A stretch of 64,000 bases of DNA from Pristiophorus japonicus (taxonomy: Eukaryota). The stretch covers positions 129,766,001-129,830,000 of the forward strand of contig NC_091980.1 of assembly GCF_044704955.1 (NCBI RefSeq), written 5' to 3'. This document shows, piece by piece, positions 1,111-61,072 of the stretch; positions within the stretch are counted from its first letter, which is position 1; each line of letters begins with the position of its first letter. The notes below the pieces were generated by a model, which did no database searches, had not been told where the DNA came from, and worked only from the letters and a program-made list of their open reading frames with translations. Made by a program: the position numbers and the translations under genes.

Positions 1111-1299
1111 TTTGTCATAATGTGGATCTTACAGTTTATTCCCTCTTATAAAGGGGGCACTTATTGTTTAAGTGTTTCCGATAGTTGAATTAAACATTCC
1201 AATAATTAGCCCAAAGAATAGAGGATCCAATTAAACCTGTGACTCGGGATATTTGAACTGTGTTTGAGGAAAGTTTGGACAATTGAGATCCTCATTGAG

Positions 1300-1480
1300 T
1301 TGTCAGCCAATGAAGCTCATTCTTCAAAGATCTGACTGGCTGTGGGAGTCCATCCCCCTCCTCCCTTTACTTGATTGGTGCTCTGAGAGGCTGCAACTTC
1401 TGATTGGGTATTGAGGACTGCCACTCATCATCAAGAGTGCCACACCCTGGATTATCCCTCAGTGTAAATATAGGAGTTTG
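1300..1480 (+). promoter_or_regulatory. Type-A ferritin promoter of g1 (two inverted CCAAT boxes, TATA variant TGTAAATA at 1463-1470)
   Basis: tgattggtg and tgattgggta followed by cagtgtaaatatagg about 80 nt before the ATG; aligns with the g2 and g5 promoters. Confidence 0.65.
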
Positions 1481-1546
1481 AGCTTTGCTCAATGTTACCT
1501 TTGTAATTTGATAAATTTTTTACTTTGAAAAAAATAAAACATTAAG

Positions 1547-5833
<4,287 letters not shown>

Positions 5834-6369
5834 AGCTTCTGACCAGTACTCGTGTGTGGTGTGTGGGTGTCCTGGGCTCTTGATGTGAAATGTAATTAAC
5901 TAAATAAACTGTTCAACATTGGACTGGGTTTTGTCTCCTTGCAAGTTTGAGTGGTTGCTTATTTTCCATTTACCATAACTTGTTTGCAGCACAAGTATTG
6001 CACTCAGCTATGCAACAGTCATACATTGGTTACAGCCCGGGAGGCCATTCAGCCCATCAAACCTGTGCTGGCTTGCCAAGAGCACTTCAGCTAGTCCTAT
6101 TCCCCTGCACTTTCCCTGTAGCACAGCAATTTTTATTCTTTCAGCTACTTGTCCAATTCCACGATTGAATCTGCCTCCACCACCCTCTCAGGCAGTGCAG
6201 TCCAGACACTAAGCACTCACTGCATAAAAGTTTTTCCTCATGTCCGCTGTGGTTCTTCTGTCAATCACCTTAAATCTGTGTCTGCTGGTTCTCAACCCTT
6301 CTGCCAGTGGGAACAGTCCTAATAATTTTTCTCTTTTTGCTGGGTTAATTTTAATATTTATATTCATAA

Positions 6370-7455
6370 AAACATATAGGAGCAGCAGTAGGCCATTCAG
6401 CCCTTTAAGCCTGCACCGCCATTCAATATGATCAAAACTGATCCTTTAACATCACCATGTTCATGCTTTTACCCCATAGCCCTTGATGCCTTTTGTATCA
6501 AGATATCTATCTTTCTTCCTCCTTTTTAAATAGTGAGGTTACATTTGCCACCATCCAATCCGCAGCAACTGTTTCATAATCTATAGAATTTTGAAAGATG
6601 ACAACCAATGCATTCACTATTTCGATGGTTACCACTTTTAGTACTCTGGGATGCAGATTATCAGGGCCCTGGTGATTTATCAGCTTTCAGTCCCATTAAT
6701 TTTTCCAGCACTATTTTCTTACTCATATTCATTCCCTTTAAGTTCTCTTGCTCACTAGACCTTTAGTTCCCTAGCATTTCTGGGATGTTATTTGTGTCCT
6801 CTTCTGTGAAGACAGCTGAAGTATTTAATTGTCTGCCATTTCCTTGTTCCCCATTATAAATTCTCCTGTTTCTGACTGTAAAGGACCTACATTTATCTTC
6901 AATATCTTTTTCTTTTTATGTACTTGTAGAAACTTTTGCTGTCGGTTTTTATGATCTTTGCAAGTTTAATCTCATACTCATTTTTCCCTCTTAATCAATC
7001 TCTTGATCCTTTTTTGATGAATTCTAAACTGCTCCCAATCCTCAGGCTTGCTACTTTTTCTGGCAATTTTGTATAACTCCTCTTTGGATCGAATATTACC
7101 CTTAATTTATTTTGTAAGCTGTGGTTTGGCCAATTTTCCTTTTGTGTTTATGTACCAGAAAGGAATGTATAAATGTCGCAATTCATGCATTCGTTCCTTA
7201 AATGTTAGCCATTTACTATCTATCGTCATGACTTTTAATTAATATTCTCAATCTATCATAGACAATTAATTCCTTACACCTTCGTAGTTTCCTTTGTTTA
7301 GACTTATGACCCGAGTTTTGGATTGGACTACTTCACTTTCCATCTTCTTGATGAATTCATGAAGAAATTCTATCATGTTATGGTCACTTTCCTAAAGGAC
7401 CCTGCATAAAAAGACAATTAATTAACCCCTTTTCATTGCACAAAACCCAATCTAC
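6370..7455 (-). mobile_element. CR1 LINE fragments
   Basis: Reverse-strand LKADKSPGP..LHPRVLK and RGPLGKSDHNMIEF-type segments; paralogous to 46040-47090. Confidence 0.75.
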
Positions 7456-8310
7456 GACAGATATCCAGACATGTTGAAGACCTCATTTCAATTCTACGTA
7501 TATCTTGCAAATTCTATTCATGCATTTCATTCTTGTGTTGCAATGCTGTAATACAACAGCTGAAATGGTCAAGTGTCTTAAAGGAGGCAGAGAGGTTTAC
7601 ATCATGTGATTAGTCCATTTGGCCACTCAAGCCTGCACCTCCATTCAGTAATATCATGACTAATCTGATCTTGGCCTCAACAATTTCCTGCCTGTTCCCC
7701 ATAACCTTTGACTCCCTTATCGTTCAAAAATCCATCTATCTCCACCTTAAATGTATTCAATGACGCAGCCTCCACAGCTCTCTGGGGTTGAGAATTCCAA
7801 AGATTCACCACCGACTGAGTGAAGAAATTTCTCCTCATCTCAATCCTAAATGGCCGACTGCTTATTCTGAAACTGTGAGCACGTATTCTAGACTCCCCAG
7901 CCAGGGGAAACATCCTCCCTACATCTATCCTGTCAAGCCCCGTCAGAATGTACTGCAGAATTACCGTAGTACATGTAAAATCAGACAGAATGCACAAGTG
8001 CAAAAGGTGTCTTCTCAGATATTTAAAACATAAAAAAAACCACATACACATTCAAAACTTGCATGGATCTAATAATAGGGGCGAGGCAGTCCTACAAATA
8101 CAAAGGTATCGAGATGGGCTGCTGGGTGGGAAATGGCATTAAATTTGGGAAGATGCAAGAGAATGAGAGAAGGGAAGTTAATTCGACAGTGGGAACACAA
8201 ACTAAATGGCTCTGGGCCACAAGCCACCAACACAGGAGTTGAGTCTGGGAATCGCGGAGGTAGAGACCGTGGAGAATTTAGAGATGATTGAGCTAGATAT
8301 TGACAGACAA

Positions 8311-8970
8311 GGGGTAGTACTGAGGGAGTGCTGCACTGTTGGAGGGGAAGTACTGAGGGAGCATTGCACTGTCAGAGGGACAGTACTGAAGGAGCGCTGC
8401 ACTTTCGGAGGGGCAGTACTGAGGGAGTGTTGCACTGTCAGTGGTGCAGTACTGAGGAGTGCTGCACTGTTGGAACGGCAGTACTAAGGAACTACTGCAC
8501 TATTGGAGGGGCAGTACTGAGGGAGCGCTGCACTGTCAAAGGCGCAATACTGAGGGAGTGCTGCACTGTCGGAGGGGCAGTACTGCGGGAGCGCTGCACT
8601 GTCAGAAGGGCAGTACTGAGGAAGACCAGCACTGTCGGAGGTGCTGCCTTTCGGATGAGGCGCTAGACCGCTGCTCACTGAGGTGGACATAAAAGATCTC
8701 AGGATGGTATTTCGAAGAAGCGCAGGGGGAGTTCTCTCTGTTATCCTTGACAATATTTATCCCTCAACCTAAACAGATTATCTGGTCATTATCACACTGC
8801 TGTTTGCGGGAGCTTGCTGTGCGCAAATTGTCTGCCGCACGCATTGTTGTAATTTCCTACATTACAACATTGACTATACTTCCAAAAATACTTCATTTGT
8901 TGTAAAGACCTTTGGGACATCTTGAGACCATGAAAGGCGCTATATAAATGTAATTATTTCTTCTTTCTAA
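8311..8970 (+). mobile_element. Deu-domain (SacSINE-like) SINE with a tandemly amplified 33-bp core
   Basis: About 10 copies of ggcagtactgagggagtgctgcactgtcggagg (8311-8641) running into ggtgctgcctttcggatgagg... and an L2-like tail aggcgctatataaatg. Confidence 0.7.
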
Positions 8971-9928: not shown

Positions 9929-13421
<3,493 letters not shown>

Positions 13422-14355
13422 ACTGACTGCCAGGAACAAGCTTATTGTGTTTTATATAATTGTGCGCGAGATTCAATCAAGTAGAGAATGACGACTAGTG
13501 ACTTTGTATAGGTTGAGACCTGTGCTCTTGGTGTGAAATGTAATTAACTGTAAATAAACTGCCCAATATTGGACTGCGTTTTGTCTCCTTGTAAATTCGA
13601 GTGGTTGCTTATCTTCAGATTAACATGAATTGGTTTACATCAGACTAGAATTACACTGGGCTGTGTAACAGCTTTATTTTCGATTTTCCTTTAGATGTAA
13701 GTTTAATTTACTGAGCTGGATATTCAGTGTTGCATGTCGAAGATCTAATTTCAATTTGGTTTATAACTTGGGAGCAAATTGTCTTCTTGCCTTTCAGTGA
13801 TTGTGTTGCAGCAGAGGTGAAGATAAATGCTGTAACACAACAATTTGCCGATTTTATATAGCTCCTTTAACATAGTACATTTCACTAAGACATTTTGCAG
13901 GAGTGTCACTAAATACGTTTTGAGTGAGACACATGAGACAGGAAGGTATTAAGGAGTGTCTTAGACGAGGGAGGAGGGAAGAGAATTTTCGGGGTGTGAA
14001 CTTTGAGCTTGGGCCAAAGTAACTGCTTCTACTGGTAAATATTCTTTCTGCTCTCTGCATCAATGGCAACTCTCTTTAATCCCTCAATACAACAAACTCT
14101 CAGCTGCTGTAACTGTATTAAAATGCAAGGAGAGTTTGCCAATGAATTAGAGTGACATTGTTTCATTCCCAGAAACAATCCAATTTCAAGAATGGTATCT
14201 GCTTGGGAAGAACAGTCTAGGTATTTATTGTAAGCTTCTACCAGTCCCACTGAGTAGTACCTGTGGGATACACTGCAGGTCGCTCACGGAACCAAGCTCC
14301 ATGCTGCTGCTGCAGAATTTCTGTGCTACTTTACCCACAAAATTGACCAGAACGA

Positions 14356-14583
14356 GCTTGACCCATCCACCTCCACGGAGGTGTGTGGGGGACCTGACCC
14401 ATCCACCTCCATGGCACGAACCTGGTATTGCAGTACTTCCAGGAACGGTGCAGTGGCTCTAGGCCTTTTGGCTAAGAGCATTGGCACAGAGTGATCCTTG
14501 GCGTGTGCAAGGTGACCTCTGGCGTTTGTGATTTGACAAAGAATTGGAACGATTGGCTACGAATTTCAAAAAAAAAAAAAAAA
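14356..14583 (+). mobile_element. U2 snRNA-derived retroposon (SINE-like) with poly(A) tail and 17-bp TSD
   Basis: U2 3' part (gagcttg.ccatccacctcc...CCTGGTATTGCAGTACTTCCAGGAACGGTGCA, stem-loop IV at 14421-14443), then the U2 5' end (ctctaGGCCTTTTGGCTAAGAgca, 14462-14477), an ~85-nt unique tail and A16 at 14568-14583. TSD AAAATTGACCAGAACGA at 14339-14355 and 14580-14596. Confidence 0.85.
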
Positions 14584-15789
14584 TTGACCAGAACGACTGG
14601 CAACCAGCAATGTCTGAGCTCATTGTGAGAGCTCCCTGAACCCAGGGTACTAAAGGTAACTATGATTGTGAAATACACCTGAAATAATATATTTACTTAC
14701 TGGCCTCTTGGGGCAAAAAGTGTGGATTCCTTTTAGGGGAGAGGACTGAATTTGGTTCTTAACATTTTCTCTGTTTTGTCTCTCTCTGGATTGAATAACC
14801 TGTCTACTTCGACTCCTACATGTATAAAAAGTTGTACAAGGCATTAAAGGGAGAAGTAATCATGAATTGCACTCGAATAACATGTAATTCTTCGGGAAAG
14901 AGTAAATGTATTTCATTAAATGCAAAAAGCAGTTAACTTAAACACCAAGCAAAAACAATAGATATTTCTCCTGCCTCACCACACCCTTCCACAAATTAAT
15001 AAACCCAATACAGCTCCTCCATAATCTTATCCATTTGTGCATTTCATACCAAATAGCAATCAGCCTCTCCAAATCCTGCTGGATCCCCATGTGTCTCTTT
15101 CACTGCAGGAATGGATTCAAATGTTCACACTACAACTGTTTATCCAATGTTTATAAATTAATTATTTGAGAACTGCACTGCGTGCAATAAAATTGCCATC
15201 TTCAGTCATTCCTTGTTAATGTCTTTACATCTCTCCAAGTTTCCAGTCACCTTATTTGCTATTGTATGAAAATTCATCAAGGGCCAAGGAAGCATCTCAC
15301 CACCTTGGGCTTTCTGTGCCTATCACCATCCCGATTCCCCACAGGGAGTGACACTGAATTCGAAGAGATCCTGTGGAAAGGATCAAAGGTTCCCTCAGAC
15401 CCAGTAACCATAGGCCTGAATCAAAGTCTCGAGTGCCCACCGGGGTGGCCATTGAGTGTGACTATGTGATGTCCATCAGTTTGCTCAAAGCCCTTTGTGA
15501 CTGCATCATGGATCCTTCGACCAATACAGGTGTAAATACCCAGATACATGTTTGGTTCAGGTGGGTCAACATTCTCTCTCTATCCACTCTATCAAACTTT
15601 TCGTAATTATAAGGACCTGTGGTGTGATTGGTGGCTCCGGATCTGATTCATTGCCACTCCCTCTGCCCCATCTAAAGCAGAGTTTTAATCCAAGCGAATG
15701 CCTCTCATCAGCTAATCCAGGACTGAACCACTTCTGCACTGAAACCAGACATCATGGCTTTGGATCTCAGAGAAACACCAACATGAAAG

Positions 15790-38824: not shown

Positions 38825-41800
38825 TGTAGGGTGTTTGTTTTGTTCACTCTGCTCTGATTCTTAGACCTCAGAACTTATAGTGGGAAAGGACAGCACGTGC
38901 ACAACATTTTAGGCTTAACCCAGTGTTTTTTTTAATACGCAACAAAAACCGACTAAAAACTACAGGACTAGACTGCCCGAGAGAAATTGACCTAAGACAT
39001 ACAATCGCCAGCCCTGGCTGTAGCTATTGTAGTTTTGTGGTTCTTATTCTGGCCGTTAACTGCAGCTTCTGTTCCTTTCCTTCCGTGCCTACGTGCTGTT
39101 TCTTCTTGTGTTCTTCCTCCTGCTTCTGTTTAGCTGTTGCTTCGTATATTTATATCCAGGTTTTGAATAAGTTTCCTGCTGTGACGAAATTGGATTATTG
39201 ATCCATTTAACTGGTTGGTGATGAAGTTCAATGGTTCCTAATTTGCATGTGGAATTGACAATGCAAAAGATATTTCCTTATGCTGAAAGCTGTTAGCCCA
39301 AAATTTGTGGGGATTGTTTGTTGTTACAGACTCGATGTCTCCAGTGGCTGTTTTCCCCACCCTGGTCAATCAAGTTCAGGGCCTCACGTAACAACTCCAT
39401 TGTTGTTATGCATGAAGTCAGTTTTGGTTCCTGACTACAGGATGTCCTTAATTGTCCAGTTTAATTCCAAAGTTTGTATCAATCAATTTTTAGTTCATGG
39501 TCTGTATTTTTCTGAAGATTAGTAACCTTACAATATCCCTACTTTTAATGTCTCTTATAATAAACTCAGACATTATTCTGGGTGGCGTCCTCTTTTTCCA
39601 CACACGTTTTGGATGATTGCAGCCTTTGTCAAATCTCCCCATTACATTTCTTTTTACACACAAAACCCAATGTTTTTACAATACAACAGTGTTTCTTACA
39701 ACAAAACCATGTTTGGTCTTATTCTGATTTTGGTTTATACAATTTTTTACAAACACTTCAGACTGGGTTTACTTTAATAAACCTTCCCGATTTCCTTTCC
39801 TCATCCTTTTCTTTAATATATAAGACAAGTAGATACAACACTATTATCAATTGTACAACTACTAATGAGTGTGATACGATTCGAACCCAGGGGGGATTTC
39901 AATATTGAGTCCCAGATCCCATCATGGAGGGCCATCCTTTCCTCGATTTTCCCCCTTACTTTATCATTCTCCTGGAGTAACGTGTAATGTTTGTGAGACA
40001 GCTCGATTTTCTTTAATAGTTCAGTCAGATGTTCGGGTAACAGCGGAATATCTTTTCCAAAACGTGATATGTATTCCTGGAGGTTCAGTAAAGTACCGGT
40101 GTGATACTTATGTGTTTGTGGTCTGAAATAGGAATTATCCTTTCTTGTGCTACTTGTGTTTCTACCTGGGGTTTGAAACAAAAAGTAGAATCCCTCATTG
40201 GGCACCAAGTGTCCTGGTGTATTCTATACCGACTTTCCCTGGTGGTGACACAGTATGTACTGTTTCCCTTATACGCAACCTGTGGCAGAACATGGTTGTG
40301 AGTCGTCACTTCCATGATACGGCTTATAGGCTGCCCGTCCTCGTACTTGAACCCACATACCGGCCGGTCGAAAGGATTCAGATGATTGGGGCACAATATC
40401 ACAAGTGTACCCCTTCTCTGGCATCCCTCCAGATTAGCACTGGTTATTGAGTCTCCCAATTTTGCCAAATACTGCGGGGTTTTATGATGTTTCACATGTA
40501 TCCCATTCCGAATTACCCCAATTTTTCTACCCGGTATACCGGTACGGGTTGTTGGGATATCTCCCCGATATCCCAATCCTTTAATGATAATGGCCATCCA
40601 CAAGCTTATCCACAATGTCCACCTCATCTCATATTCCTGGCTCGATTCGCTCCTATTAAGACAAAAAAAGAAAGAAAATTATTTTGCTCTGTGGGGCCTC
40701 CTCCTCACAGGTCCTTCTTCAGTTATTCACCTCTTTACAGAACATCTTTTTACGATCACTGATTCCTTTTTCCTTTGTATCCTTAACTCAATTTAGCTAA
40801 ATCAATTTTAATTTCACGAACCCCTATGTCCAGCCTTTGTGATTTAACCTTACTGGAGTTCACACAGCACTGCCCCATAAATGTTCAAGTTCAGTAACAC
40901 CTTGAGGTCATTTCCATATTAAAGGACCTCTCTCGGTAATTGCCTGATTGAAAGAAAAGAAAAAGAACATCCATTGTGGCTTTTCCTGTCAGCCCAATGG
41001 GTTCATTCATCAATTCTGATCCCCTTTCTGTTACTTTGGGAAACCATCACTCAAATTCCAAACTTAAAATTTTCTTAAAAATGTTATAAATGCACAGAAT
41101 ATTTATTCGATTCTTAACAAGGTGTTGCTTTCTGAAGTCTTGTACAGAGTGTTACCTTTTTTGCATTTTAAAACTTCGATAAACATGCATACTAATGCAA
41201 GGTACCACACATACCAATAGCTTACACAGTACAATGGTTCTCTCTTTCATGCATAATAGCAGTACACACCCTTTTCTCCACTGGTCACACATCCTTAAAT
41301 CGGTCAGAAATTTTTTATTTTTAAAATACCAAATATATGTGATTGCCCCATGTCCGGAACTAGAGGTTTTTCACACAATTTAAACCAACCAGAATTCCAC
41401 TATGACCGTCATAAAAGTCTGGTGTTTAACAGGTTAATTAACCTCAATAACTCCTAATAGTTCAAACCAATTTCAAACTAACCAGTGCCAGTTGAAAAAA
41501 AAACTATACAGACACACACACTTAAAGACAAGCTAAAAACCATCCACATGCTTTTAACTTAACCATTCACACTGAAACATCAGAGGTTTTTAGTCCAGCT
41601 TTTCTCCACCCATGCCCCTAACCTGCTGTAATGCGGCCACTAACATCTGTCATCATCTTCATCATCATAGGCAGTCTCTCGGAATCAAGGAAGACTTGCT
41701 TCCACTCCTAAAGTGAGTTATTTGGTGGCTGAACAGTCCAATACGGGACCAAAAAGACCTTGTCACAGATGGGACAGACATTCGGTTGGAGGAAGAGTTG

Positions 41801-43480: not shown

Positions 43481-46039
43481 ATTGCAAATGTAGAAGATTT
43501 GTTCACAACAGTGACAGGTGGTCAGATCTTCTCAAAGTTAGATCTCAAAAATGCCCACTTACAACTGGAGCTAGATGAGGAGGCCAAGTCATGTTTGACT
43601 CTAAGTACTCATCTAGGCCTGTATCAATTTAATAGGCTACTATTTGGATTGTCTTCCACCCCTGCCATTTCCAAGGAGTGATGAACAAGATTTTGCAAGG
43701 TATTGAAGGGGTAGTATGTTATTTAGATGACATATTAATTCCAGCAACTAACAGGCAAATCCATACTAACGTATTGAATGAAGTGCTCAACTGGTTAGAG
43801 AAGCACAGAGTATGAGTGACTGCTCGCAAGTGTGTTATTTCAAAGCTCAGTGGAGTACTTACGGCACAGAACAGACAAAGATGGGTTACATCCAACCAAG
43901 GCAAAGGTGGATGCAATTAGAAATGCTCCCCTCCCAAGAATGTCACTGAACTTCGATCATTTTTGCGTCTTTTGAACTATTATGAGAAGTTCCTCACAAA
44001 TTGGGCTATGATGTTACATCCACTGAATGAACTGTTGAAGAAACAGGTCCAGTGGAAGTGGTCAGAAGAATGCGATACAGCATTCAAGGAGTGTAAAAAC
44101 CAGTTGATAGGGAGCTCCCTGTTTGTTCACTATAACGTATCTAAAGAGATCAAGTTAGCGTGTGACGCCTCTCTGTATGGAGTTGGGACAGTGATCTCTC
44201 ATGTACTACATAGTGGGGAGGAGAAACCAAATGATTTTGCTTCACGTAGTCTCAGTGCCAGTGAGCGTAATAATGTGCAACTTGAATGGGAAGTTTTGGC
44301 ATTAATTTTTGGGGTGAAGAAGTTCCACAAATACCTGTATGGTCTTAAGTTTAGCATCATTATGGACCATAAGCCCCTGACAGCAATCCTCCATCCAAAA
44401 TCCTCCATTGCAACCTTAGCTGTAGCCTGAATGCAGAGATGGGCTTTGATTCTGTCAGCATAAACATATGACATTGAGTACAGATGATCAGCTGATCACA
44501 GTAATGCTGATGCTATGTCCAGTTTGCCATCACCATCACAAGTTGCACCCAATAGGGAAGAAGTGTTGTATTTTTCATATATTGATGAACTGGCAATCAC
44601 AGCTGAAGAGATTGGTAGAGCAACCAAACATAATCCAGTTGTGTCAATGGTGTATGGTTACATTGCAAATAGCTGGCCAAACCATATATCAGAGAAAGAC
44701 ATTCATCCATACTTTGTTTGTCGGAATGAATTATCAGTGGATAAAGAGTGTATCATGTGGGGTGCAATTTGGTTATACCAAATAAATTCAGGTCCAAAAT
44801 TATTAGGAGATCGTCATACCCCCAGCACTTGGGAATATTCTTGACCAAGATTTTTGCATACAATTACTTATGGTGGCCAGGTCTAGATAAAGATATAGAG
44901 TACATCATTAGTCAGTGTACAATATGTCAATCGGTAAGCAAGAAACCACCATCAGTACCATTACAGCCATGGAAATGACCTCCCAGGTTGTGGCATATTG
45001 ATTTTGCTGAGCTAGAAGGACAGTAATTGTTCATTGTGATTGATAGCCATTCAAAGTAAAACACGAGATAATTTGCGAAGATTACTTTCTTCATTTGGCC
45101 TCCCAGAAGAAATTGGTCACAATTTTGTTCAAAAGAATTTGCACAGTTCACGAGCAAAAGTTTTGTGAAACATACCAAAGTTCCACCATACCACCCTGCT
45201 TCAAATGGTGCAGCAGAGGGCACTGTACAAATTGAAAACATGCCCTTATCAAACAAAAGTTGGATCCAAATCCAAAGAAACAACATTTGTCATTGGACCA
45301 CAAATTGGCTAATTTTCTAATTACGTATCGTAATACTCCTAGTACAGCTACTTGTAGAACACCAGCAGAGTTTTTCTCAAACAACAGCTATGAACTAGGT
45401 CCTCGTTTTTGAAGGCAAACTTGGCACAGTCCGTAGAAGAGAAACAATTAAGACAAAAAGAGAATCATGATAGAGGTAGAGTAAAAGAGAGAAGGGTGAA
45501 ATTAAATCAGAATGTTAAAGTGAAGAACCATCATCATAAATGGTTATAGTGGTTACCGGGAAGAATGGTAAAGCTATGTGATCCTCGCACATATTTGGTC
45601 AAGATGTTTGATTATGGACAGGTTATGTTTGTTCATATTGATCATATGTTACTTACAGATAGGGAAGAAGTTGGAATGATTTGATTATTTCTGACTCATC
45701 AGTTAGTCTATTACAAGTACAGTACCAGTAGCATATCCTACATCAAATGTACTAGAAACGAATCCAAGAAAAGTCAGAATTTAAATCCGAGTCCGAGACA
45801 GGCAGACAAACAGCCTGAAGTTGTAGAGAGTTCAAATGTAGATCAAGGGCATTCCTTGGAGGAAAAATCTCCTCAGGATCAGATCAGCCTAGAATGAATC
45901 TGTGTTCGACACCGTGTTTGGAAAGTTCGAGAGCGAAGGTAGCCTCTTCGAAACAGAGAACAAGTGGTAAAGTTTGATTAGTAAATATGGCAAAATAAGT
46001 TCATATCTTTTGTTATATATAACCATGCAAGTTATGTAT

Positions 46040-47689: not shown

Positions 47690-48095
47690 ATACAGTACTG
47701 AGAGAGTGCTGCACTCTCAGACAGGCAGTATTGAGGGAGCGCCGCACTGTGAGAGGAGCAATACTGAGGGATTGCTGCAGTGTCAGAGGGGACAATACTG
47801 ACGGAACGCTGCACTGTCAGAGGGGCAGTACTGAGGGAGCGCTGCACTATCGGAGGTGCCATCTTTCAGATGAGACGCTAGACCGTCTGCTCTCTTAGGT
47901 GGACGTCAAAGATCTCAGGATGCTATTTCGAAGAAGTGCAGAGGGAGATCTCTCTGGTTTCCTTGACAATATCTATCCCTAACCAAAACAGATTCTCTGG
48001 TCATTAACACACTGCTGAACTTGATTGGCTGTAAAGAGCTTTGAGACATCCTGAGGCCGTGAAAGGGCTATGTAAATGGAATTCTTTCTTCTTTC
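47690..48095 (+). mobile_element. Deu-domain SINE with about 5 tandem core units (paralog of 8311-8970)
   Basis: cagtactgagggagcgctgcact units followed by ggtgccatctttcagatgagacg. Confidence 0.7.
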
Positions 48096-57214: not shown

Positions 57215-60200
57215 TGTTATGTATGGAGAAAGAGTCAGACTGAACACTGAGCTCAAAGTAAAGTGTGACCTTTGTCTTTTATTGCAGGTCTCCAGAGTGC
57301 TTCTCCAACTGTGAGGCCTCCTTAAATACCTGTGCTCCCAAGGGATTGTGGAATCCCTTGGGACTCCAGGGGATGAGCCCTCTGGTGGTTGTACAGAGTA
57401 TAGACAAGTTTACATATATAACAACACCCCCCTAAAGTTAACAGTGTAACTAGAAGGTGAGTCGATCTGGGACCCTTCTTGCCCTGGTTGATCGTCTCGG
57501 TGTGAATGCCGGTATTAGCGAATCATCTATTGGGCCCTCGCTGGACTGCTCTGCCGCTGGCCTTGCTGGGCTGCCTGGTGTGGTGGGTCCTGCTTGCCTT
57601 CTGTGGATGATGGGTTCTGCTTCGTGGCCAACCGTGGTGCCAGTTGCCACTGTTGTGTATGTTGGGGGGTCAAAAAAGGTAGGGTCCAATGTGGGTTGCT
57701 CAGGTTAGTCCGTGAATCTGAGTTTGATTTGGTCCAAGTGTTTCCGGTGAAGGAGTCAATTTGAAAGTTTGACCGGCAACACCCTGCTCCCCTCTTTGAC
57801 CATGACAGTGCCGGGAAGCCACTTGGGACCTTGTCCATAATTCAATACAAATACAGGATCATTGATTTCAATCTCGCATGACACATTTGCACTATCATAC
57901 TTTATTGAAGCCGCCTGCTCTCTATCTGTTCATGTAGATCAGGGTGAACTAACGAGAGCCTTGTCTTAAGTGCTCTTTTCATGAGCAGTTCAGCAGGTGG
58001 GATCCCAGTGAGCGAGTGGGGTATCGCGCGGTAGCTAAGTAGGACTCAGGAGAGGCGAGTCTGCAGTGAGCTTTCCGTTACCCTCTTCAAGCCCTGCTTG
58101 ATGGTTTGCACTGCTCTCTCTGCCTGATCATTGGATGCTGGTTTAAACGGGGCAGATGTGACATGTTTGATCCCGTTACAGGTCATGAATTCTTTCAACT
58201 CAGCACTGGCAAAACATGGCCTGTTGTCGCTCACCAGGACATGGGGTAGGCCGTGTGTGGCAAACATGGCCTGCAGGCTTTCAGTAGTGGCAGCGGACAT
58301 ACTCGCCGACATTATATCACATTCAATCCACTTGGAGTACACACTCCAACCACAAAGAACATTTTACCCAAGAACGTGTACCCTAGACCACAGATTGGAG
58401 GGCCAAGACTATGAACTTAGCAGCGCCTCACTGGGTGCATTGCTTAACTGTGAGCATGTATTACATCTGTGCATGCAGGACTCTAAGTCCACATCGATAC
58501 CGGGCCACCACACATAGGATCTGGCTATCGCTTTCATCATTACGATGCCTGGGTGGGTACTGTGTAGGTCACTAATGAAGGTGTCTCTGCCCTTCCTGGG
58601 AACCACTACTCGACTGCCCCACAGAAGGCAGCCTGCCTGTATAGACATTTCATCTTTGCGCCACTGGAACGGCTTTATCTCTTCCTGCATTTCCACTGGG
58701 ACATTGGACCAGCTCCAGTGAAGCACACAGTTTTTCATGAGGGATAATAACAATGTGCTGAGACCCGGTAGGAAGTTACCAAAATAGTTCAGGAGTCCTA
58801 GAAATGACTGCAGCTCTGTCACGTTCTGTGGCCTCGATGCGTTCTCGATTGCCTCCACCTTCGAATTGGTGGGCCTGATGCCGTCCGCCGCGACCTTCCT
58901 CCCCAGGAACTCCACTTCAGGCACCAGGAAAACACACTTCGAACATTTTAACTTGAGCCCCACGCAGTTGAGTCCACTAAGAACCTCCTCCAGGTTCTGA
59001 AGATGCTCAACTGTATCCCGACCTGTAACCAAGATGTCGTCCTGGAAGACCACAGTGCGCGGGACCGACTTCAGTAAGCTTTCCATGTTTCTCTGGAATA
59101 TCGCCGCTGCTGATCAAATTCCAAGCGGGCATCTGTTATCAATGAAAAGACCTTTGTGCGTGTGGATGCAGATGAGGCCCTTCAATGATTCCTCCAGTTC
59201 CTGCATCACGTAGGCTGAAGTCAAATCCAGCTTCGTGAATGTCTTTCCTCCCGCCATCGTTGGAAAGAGGTCGCTGGCCTGTGGTAGCGGGTATTGGTCC
59301 TGCAGGGAGAAACGATTGATAGTTACTTTGTAATCACCACAGATTCTGATGGTGCCATCTCCCTTGAGGACTGGGACAATAGTACTGGCCCACTCATTGA
59401 ACTCGATAGGTGAAATGATGCCTTCTCTTTGCAGCCGGTCTAGCTCGATCTCTATCCTTTCTCTCACCATGTACGATACTGCTCTCGCCTTCTGATGGAT
59501 GGATCTGCACTTTTGCTCCTTGGAATTTCCCGATGCCTGGTTCGAACAGCGAAGGGAACTTGTTTAAGACCTGGGCACACGAAGTGTTGTCAGCGGCCGA
59601 TAGGGCTCGGACGTCGTTCCACTTCCAGCATATCTTTCCCAGCTAGTTCCTGCCGAGTAGCGTGGGACCATTGCCCGGTACCACCCAGAGTGATAGCTTG
59701 TGCCACGCTCCATCGTAGGAGACCTTTACGGTAGCACTGCCGATTATGGGAATCAATTTCTTTGTATAAGTTCTTAATTTTGTGCGAATTGGAGTTAAGA
59801 CTAGCCTTGAGACCGTGCTGCACCACAATTTTTCCAAAGTCTTTTTGCGCATGATGGACTGGCTCGCGCCTGTGTCCAACTCCATTGACACCGGGAGTTC
59901 ATTTAGTTCAACATTCAGCATTATCGGGGGACACTTTGTGGTGAATGTGTGCACCCCATGTACCTCTGCCACCTTGGTCTGAGGCTCTAGTTCGTCATAA
60001 TCCTCCGTGGATCTGTCCTCCTCTGCATCATGGTGGTTTGCAGGATTAACAGGATTTACAGCTCGCCTGCACATACGTTGGAGGTGCCGCATTGTTCCAC
60101 AGCCCTTGCAACTGTACCCTTTGAATTGGCATGAATGAAAACAATGATCACCCCCACAGCGCCAACAAGGTGTTAATGGCCTTGCATTCATCACCCTTAA

Positions 60201-61072
60201 TGGTGGACTCTGAGACATCTGCGGACGTGCAGCTGCAGGCATGTGTGACCTGCCCTGTACGTTGTGATTTGAAAACAACATCACTTTTTTCACAGTACTT
60301 GTAGCAACACTTGTGTGCTGAGAGATTTGCTTCGTATTGTCACTGGTGGCAATGAATGCCTGGGCTCTCGCTATGGCTTTACTCAAGGTTGGGGCCTCTA
60401 CAGTCAAAAGTTTGCGAAGTATGGTTTCGTGGCCAATGCCAAGTACGAAAAAGCCTCTGAGCATGTGCTCCAAATGTCCTTCAAATTCACAAAGTCCTGC
60501 AAGGCATCTTAGCTCGGTGACATAATTCGCTGCTTCCTGGCCTTCAGAACTTTTGCAGGTGTAGAACCGTTACCTCGCCCTTTGGGTTCAAATGCTCCCG
60601 GACCAGTGTGCACAAATCATCGTACGATTTCTTCGTGGGTTTCGCTGGAGTAAGCAGATTTTCATGAGGCCATATTTTGGTGCCCCACAGACAGTGAGGA
60701 GAATTGCCCTTCGTTTGGCAGCGTTCTGTTCTCCATTCAGCTCATTGGTTACGAAGTATTGATCGAGTCACTCCACAAAGGTTTCCCAATCATTTCTCTC
60801 CGAGAATTACTCAAGGCTGCCCACTGATTTCTGCATCTTTGGGTTGGCTATCTGTATCTCGTTGCCAGTTGTTATGTATGGAGAAAGAGTGAGACTGAGC
60901 TCAAAGTAAAGTGTGAACTTAGTCTTTTATTGCAGGTCTCCAGATCGCCTCTCCAACTTGTGAGGCCTCCTTAAATACCTGCGCTCACAAGGGATTATGG
61001 AATCCCTTGGGACTCCAGGGGATGAGCCCTCTGGTGGCTATACAGAGTATATACAAATTTACATATATAACA
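57215..61072 (-). mobile_element. Gypsy/Ty3 retrotransposon with both LTRs (degenerate gag-pol)
   Basis: LTRs 57215-57423 and 60870-61072 (TGTTATG...ATAACA); PBS tggcaacgag and PPT-like G run on the minus strand; flanks ACTTC/ACTTT; gag CCHC (CWRCGGDH..C), protease MELDTGASQS, RT (FTKLDLTSAY, VFQDDILV), integrase (LVSDN..F, PASN.QAERAV). Inserted into an L2 fragment (57190-57214 + 61073-61250). Confidence 0.93.

Follow-up and report, generated by a model that had tools for sequence, protein, structure and literature searches.

In this work we describe a retroposon insertion found in a 64,000-nucleotide stretch of the genome of the shark Pristiophorus japonicus (NCBI RefSeq assembly GCF_044704955.1, contig NC_091980.1, positions 129,766,001 to 129,830,000 of the forward strand; hereafter the window, whose coordinates are used throughout). 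The insert, 5'-truncated and probably dead, is one copy of a retroposon that is young, non-autonomous, and made of pieces of the U2 and U1 small nuclear RNAs (snRNAs), and the family to which it belongs is a real, young, high-copy snRNA-derived short interspersed nuclear element (SINE) that works like the SINEU elements of crocodilians. This family shares its insertion site, between nucleotides 38 and 39 of the U2 gene, with a long interspersed nuclear element (LINE), and the site is the published target of Keno elements; that we are dealing with a real family and a Keno-type mobiliser we hold with great confidence. The best explanation of the data as a whole, which joins the family, the LINE as mobiliser, the capture of the U2 promoter, and the turnover of the U2 array, appears to us reasonably likely. 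The question has a wider bearing: two papers (PMC4494074, PMC5786205) describe the transcription of snRNA-headed SINEs as an open question, since an snRNA promoter is no part of the transcript and does not travel with a retrotransposed copy. Promoter capture suggests itself as a candidate answer, and the present genome, which supplies named candidate source loci with diagnostic variants as well as an intact candidate mobiliser, renders the question directly testable.

Size, architecture, and subfamilies of the SINE family

A 25-nt motif from the tail of the main (M) subfamily has 2,411 exact matches genome-wide, against 200 for the tail motif of another subfamily, R, and neither pattern, when reversed, has any match; the tail is thus multi-copy, and the possibility raised in the preliminary description of the insert, namely that it might be single-copy, falls away. 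In a search of the 5.9-Gb genome, all 40 scored hits were ~100% identical. The elements are short (348/343 nt, that is, below 500 nt), end in a 3' A-tract, and occur in many copies with one structure. The sequence shared among copies reaches 136 nt upstream of the start of the window copy and ends at U2 +1, giving a 348-nt unit with the following order: U2 1-35, U1 3-57, an Sm-like U-tract (element 108-113), a doubled stem-loop III-like hairpin, stem-loop IV, U2 7-29, an 87-nt tail, and the A-tract. The U1 piece (element 36-92 against U1 3-57) aligns with a score of 58, the maximum among shuffled sequences being 30, and takes the place of the branch-point region of U2. A full-length copy passes the Rfam U2 model with 60.4 bits at a gathering threshold of 46, and the predicted fold of the full-length element is far better than that of shuffles (z of -5.0 and -6.6).

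The origin of this arrangement is illuminated by a sister family, 79% alike to the window family over the shared part, in which U2 39-186 is followed by U2 2-29 and a related tail. As the sister family has the same order of U2 end, U2 head, and tail, the internal U2 7-29 of the window family probably began as the head of a shorter and older SINE; from the sequences we infer that a complete U2 was added 5' of this older element, a U2 head with a tail, and that the window lineage later swapped the middle of that U2 for the U1 piece. With a second head stacked on an older SINE, the order of the U2 parts reflects stacked heads and not the permutation proposed at first sight from the window copy, upstream of whose start the U1 piece and the Sm-like tract lie. 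The accompanying remark that the element retains no Sm site is correct for the truncated window copy but does not extend to the full-length element. Copies of the sister SINE were also seen in tandem at U2 nucleotide 38/39 behind the end of a LINE (L121:2730-3240 and L234-L239), with a U2 that has a small internal deletion.

Our survey of dispersed insertions covers 149 copies at 116 sites, with the U2-site loci L161-L175 excluded and with L099-L106 (sharing a segmental duplication with L098), L133 (coinciding with L107), and L168 (overlapping L167) dropped before counting. A strict script found a target-site duplication (TSD) at 64 of the 116 sites, with a median length of 13 nt, and the nick preference, purine-purine-pyrimidine / AA, is weak, A at -1 being excluded by construction. 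At 25 of the sites two or three copies form trains with a TSD between them, and in three trains the 5' duplication extends into the start of the head of the copy that follows, which points to the same nick being used repeatedly. The R subfamily is the younger wave, because its A-tails are longer (median 19.5, n = 24, versus 12, n = 67, for M; p = 3e-7) and because it lies 5' of M-like copies in six of six mixed trains; subfamilies turn over fast. Loci L098-L106 (G000:C7, 226-236 Mb) are a single SINE insertion multiplied ninefold by segmental duplication, with flanks 97-99.9% identical.

The window copy

The window copy (Table 1) belongs to the M subfamily, to the sub-lineage whose element position 267 (window 14486) is A, and differs from the full-length copy L028 by one base; all 212 nt of its body recur unchanged in five of the 40 scored loci. 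The preliminary description had seen in it a young SINE family derived from snRNA, represented by a 5'-truncated copy and bearing hallmarks of L1/Tx1-type machinery, a reading that the family data support, and its perfect 17-bp TSD and A16 run are both confirmed. The insert between the repeats measures 224 nt (212 nt of body and A12), since the 3' repeat begins with the last four of the 16 A's; the length of 228 nt first given, taken together with a 17-nt TSD, counts these four A's twice. The insert is indeed missing from two paralogous spacers of the ferritin cluster, at ~20.3 kb and ~55.3 kb, and the other two ferritin units, having no flank match, are uninformative on its presence.

Table 1. 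Features of the window copy and its neighbouring gene, in window coordinates
Feature	Position	Strand	Basis or remark
5' target-site duplication	14339..14355	+	Host sequence; exact 17-nt repeat; occurs once, inverted, in paralogous spacers
SINE body	14356..14567	+	Element positions 137-348 of the 348-nt family
First U2 stem-loop III-like hairpin, 3' arm (U2 ~126-147)	14356..14377	+	Alignment to the genome's own U2
Second, duplicated stem-loop III-like hairpin	14377..14411	+	17-nt duplicate; predicted fold
U2 153-186 (stem-loop IV)	14420..14453	+	32/34 identity to the genome's own U2
Internal U2 7-29 (stem-loop I)	14458..14480	+	21/23 identity to the genome's own U2
Tail, related to the sister family's tail	14481..14567	+	Without match to U1/U2 or LINE 3' UTR
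A-tail	14568..14579	+	A16 run 14568-14583 extends into the 3' duplication
3' target-site duplication	14580..14596	+	Exact 17-nt repeat
Ferritin heavy-chain-like gene (neighbour)	9929..13558	+	Start codon to AATAAA (13553); translations; Pfam Ferritin on paralogous exon

Within the body, the internal 17-nt duplicate is exact (14359-14375 and 14395-14411), as had been noticed, and the assignments to stem-loop IV with the U2 3' end and to stem-loop I hold; the duplicated 17-mer, which had been set apart from the U2 pieces, is itself U2-derived and corresponds to the 3' arm of stem-loop III. The CACCTCC/GGAGGTG hairpin proposed around its first occurrence would have a loop of 2 nt, and in the predicted fold of the full-length element, with a stem at 121-133/143-155, each 17-mer closes its own stem; the 5' arm of the first of these hairpins has been lost from the window copy through truncation. 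The tail, rightly described as ~85 nt of non-U2 sequence, has no match to U1 or U2 above shuffles (p 0.44-0.95), and its interpretation as a degenerate U1 was rejected because the alignment is no better than with shuffled sequences. Rfam detects only the stem-loop I piece of the window copy (17.8 bits, E 0.24) and gives no hit at the gathering threshold over the whole window; prion-pseudoknot, PVT1, miRNA, and snoRNA matches were dismissed as lying below threshold; a tRNA search of the window found none. The window copy itself is probably inert.

Its start, at element position 137, falls into a hot spot of truncation. The 5' starts of 47 copies in tail-selected loci, counted after the duplicate and overlapping rows named above had been dropped, are bimodal, with 27 at element positions 1-22, three at 33-87, 17 at 116-139, and none at 140-262, and the R subfamily shows the same gap. 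A 13-bp hairpin of the predicted fold has its 5' arm and its loop within the hot spot, and our preferred guess is that the clustering of starts arises from the nascent cDNA folding back. A block by the Sm ring is not favoured: truncations are fewer in R (4/30 versus 17/47, p = 0.04, in differently drawn samples), although R matches an Sm site better.

The shared insertion site and the candidate partner LINE

Tails of M type followed by an A-tract and U2 39-50 occur 15 times (control 0), most of these junctions sitting inside copies of the sister family. A census of junctions between an A-tract and true U2 yielded 57, of which 56 were classified as LINE (29), R (20), sister SINE (6), and older M-like (1), counts that include many array duplicates. 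The 3' flanks of Keno and Utopia likewise start at U2 nucleotide 39, according to the pertinent parts of PMC4640811 and PMC6136364, and the early mention of Keno as a lead was apt, with both the SINE and an intact LINE located at U2 38/39.

The intact LINE in the U2 array (L262, minus strand, 1223-6943) is 5,721 nt long and encodes an ORF1 of ~569 aa with a CCHC knuckle and an ORF2 of ~1,145 aa with an APE endonuclease (Exo_endo_phos), RVT_1, and zf-RVT domains; its copies are ~99% identical. It starts at U2 +1 with a head of its own, U2 1-44, after which stand, at +46 and +59, what we take to be CCAAT-like and octamer motifs. The closest named relatives of its ORF2 are shark proteins (74-77%); it also matches the Danio rerio pol-like protein BAC82621.1 (37% over 1,133 aa) and, more weakly, human L1 ORF2.

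The recurrent targets of the SINE are U2, its own copies, and a site in Gypsy-type pol. In the last of these, the pol of a Gypsy-type long terminal repeat (LTR) retrotransposon, the same base was hit, antisense, at nine of the 116 sites (3' flanks of L014, L022, L134, L160, L204, L208, L211, L212, and L218), and L217 and L228 share the upstream flank. Four pairs of independent-looking insertions (L009/L011, L015/L140, L096/L112, and L125/L137) occupy the same position of other abundant repeats.

Proposed mobilization and promoter capture, and competing explanations

We infer that the SINE is mobilized in trans by the LINE of the U2 array from their common insertion site: the LINE ORF2 would move it by target-primed reverse transcription from the A-tract. 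A full-length copy landing at U2 38/39 would join the 5' end of the host gene through its own U2 head, and would thereby come to lie behind the external U2 promoter and be transcribed from +1. The RNA would continue through the genomic A-tract into the remainder of U2, priming being presumably internal, at the A-tract, because the SINE has no poly(A) signal. Turnover of the U2 array would amplify and later remove such sources, giving rise to successive waves (sister, M, R).

The promoter part of this mechanism draws on copies found in U2 gene units. U2 genes of two types, which differ wholly in their upstream sequence, were observed (L032, G000:C1003; L121, G000:C9): one is a ~760-nt tandem array that has trinucleotide spacers, the other a cluster spaced at ~18-21 kb whose units carry a truncated LINE end and a headless U2. 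Seventeen R copies in units of the tandem U2 array begin at +1 directly behind type-A U2 upstream sequence, 16 of them with no mismatch over 200 nt upstream relative to an intact neighbour, and their A-tracts, which reach 77 nt, lead into the remaining part of U2 with its 3' flank; all 17 matches to the type-A pattern are confined to array contigs. One further R copy, on C9, stands behind type-B U2 upstream sequence with no mismatch in 220 nt. Among the dispersed copies, 28 of 149 start exactly at U2 +1 and none of the 28 has more than 3 nt in common with the sequence upstream of U2, as expected if the RNA starts at +1; an extra G at -1, the possible trace of a cap, is present in two of the 28, which is no signal. 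Two nested R haplotypes exist in the array, where variants mark positions 108, 113, and 130, and both also occur dispersed (L165 and L219; L221 and L231). Exact A and B boxes and an AATAAA are all absent from the element, which contains internal T4/T6/T4 runs. On these sequence grounds, we lean towards the view that the SINE is transcribed from the host U2 promoter after landing in a U2 gene.

Several observations weigh against this picture. The SINE tail shares no sequence with the last 120 and 650 nt of the LINE (p 0.12-0.96, for the intact LINE family), none of 30 dispersed zf-RVT loci has a U2 flank, and most copies of both elements lie outside U2, which we take to mean that the U2 specificity of the LINE is relaxed. 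Only four of 31 dispersed R copies match the array haplotypes, three being uninformative and 24 having haplotypes with no exact promoter-bearing counterpart, and the eight dispersed copies closest to the C9 copy, which share a variant with it, lack its private base at position 28. No M copy was found behind type-A or type-B U2 upstream sequence, M copies behind further U2 types being detectable in the junction census only where the junction is exact, and the sole older M-like copy in true U2 has no promoter flank. The 17 array copies were probably amplified from one or two events, and the type-A upstream sequence contains neither a core like the proximal sequence element in register with U1 and type-B U2 nor an exact octamer.

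These points leave room for another explanation, in which the family and its mobilizer are the same but the copies in U2 genes are mere sinks at a preferred target, while the sources use an unrelated flanking or an unrecognized internal promoter. The array copies may be such sinks, as any full-length insertion at U2 38/39 yields the identical junction (compare the C9 copy); the want of a promoter-bearing M copy and the 24 unmatched R copies fit it too, and flank-driven transcription is what Kojima proposed for SINEU in the relevant part of PMC4494074. If flanking promoters drove the sources, a shared 5' extension might appear, as in SINEU-2, but it does so in none of the 28 copies starting at +1; the nested array haplotypes have dispersed twins, and an internal promoter is at odds with the missing exact A and B boxes and the several T-runs. 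Furthermore, the assembly breaks the type-A array up into several unplaced contigs, and source copies may be absent for that reason. We regard this explanation as unlikely, though deserving of attention.

Much further down in our estimation, and very improbable, is a functional variant snRNA gene as the source, with the dispersed copies as its retrocopies. Passage of the Rfam U2 threshold, the predicted folding, and amplification within the U2 array are compatible with such a gene; against it, U1 sequence stands where branch-point recognition would be, the copies in the array interrupt a U2 and terminate there in an A-tract, which is the form of an insertion, subfamilies turn over rapidly, and the folding is inherited from the U1 and U2 hairpins. 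Finally, the readings of the insert as a chimeric U2 retrocopy that arose just once, or as the terminal part of some longer LINE, compatible as either is with 5' truncation, an A-tail, and a long TSD, are already refuted by thousands of copies of one structure and by a fixed 5' end at U2 +1, 136 nt upstream of the start of the window copy, with TSDs bracketing the 348-nt unit, and have next to no probability left; the tail, which the preliminary description had allowed might prove to be a LINE 3' UTR, has no match to the 3' end of the intact LINE or to those at 30 zf-RVT loci out of 3,758 candidates.

Comparison with known systems

By the tests run, the family is not an RNA polymerase III SINE with a tRNA, 7SL, or 5S head, given the absence of exact A and B boxes, the T-runs, and a tail not shared with the intact LINE. 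Its nearest likeness is SINEU-1, -2, and -3, the snRNA-headed SINEs of crocodilians (Kojima 2015, PMC4494074), which in the sections of that paper concerned were found in no other group; the corresponding parts of a 2018 paper repeat both that restriction and the open state of transcription (PMC5786205), and a 2017 review, in the part at hand, mentions snRNA-headed SINEs for crocodilians only (PMC5381603). We found no report of the present family in the open-access literature. From the description in PMC4494074, the common features are stacked heads derived from U1 and U2, a partial internal duplication, a length below 500 nt, internal T-runs, an A-tail, copies arranged in tandem and separated by a TSD, and a putative Tx1-type mobilizer deduced from shared targets. 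The shark family, likened here by description, differs in its cartilaginous-fish host and very young age, in its preference for U2 38/39 where the crocodilian families prefer Mariner-N4_AMi, and in having copies behind U2 upstream sequence, whereas the same account reports no promoter or start site for SINEU.

The partner LINE resembles Keno, a U2-specific member of the Tx1 clade, in its APE-type endonuclease and in being followed by U2 from nucleotide 39 (relevant parts of PMC4640811 and PMC6136364), and differs from it in its relaxed specificity and numerous dispersed copies; our searches of the open-access literature yielded no non-autonomous SINE that partners Keno. R2 is an autonomous element with a restriction-like endonuclease that is co-transcribed by RNA polymerase I. 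With R2 in 28S rDNA, as cited in PMC4494074, the proposed mechanism would have in common that the target gene supplies transcription and that array turnover governs survival, although the shark element is a non-coding SINE at an RNA polymerase II snRNA locus. The chimeric retrocopies of snRNA and L1 cited in the same paper, in which a full U2 is fused 5' of another retroelement, offer a likely origin for the junction of U2 end and U2 head; they are single events, unlike the self-propagating shark family with its subfamilies.

Whether this is an snRNA-headed SINE outside the crocodilians that uses its target as promoter, delivered into U2 by a LINE, regaining a +1 start there, and founding a new subfamily wave with each turnover of the array, we judge evenly balanced. 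If so, SINEU-type elements would extend to the cartilaginous fishes, and promoter capture would explain the repeated addition of U2 5' pieces to such elements.

Genomic surroundings of the insertion

The SINE lies ~785 nt downstream of the poly(A) signal of the neighbouring ferritin gene, within a region (~1500-56000) of about five ferritin heavy-chain-like units in tandem (repeat families D2-D4 and D6; Pfam Ferritin). Relative to the paralogs at ~20326 and ~55304, positions 14319-14352 form a ~34-nt micro-inversion between short inverted repeats, and the TSD of the SINE overlaps its end. Elsewhere in the window we observed open reading frames of unclear origin (39800-40700, minus strand), degraded pol fragments of a Gypsy-type LTR retrotransposon (58100-60600, minus strand, and 43900-44430), and arrays of a 33-nt tandem repeat heading a dispersed repeat (8310-8641 and 47693-47856).
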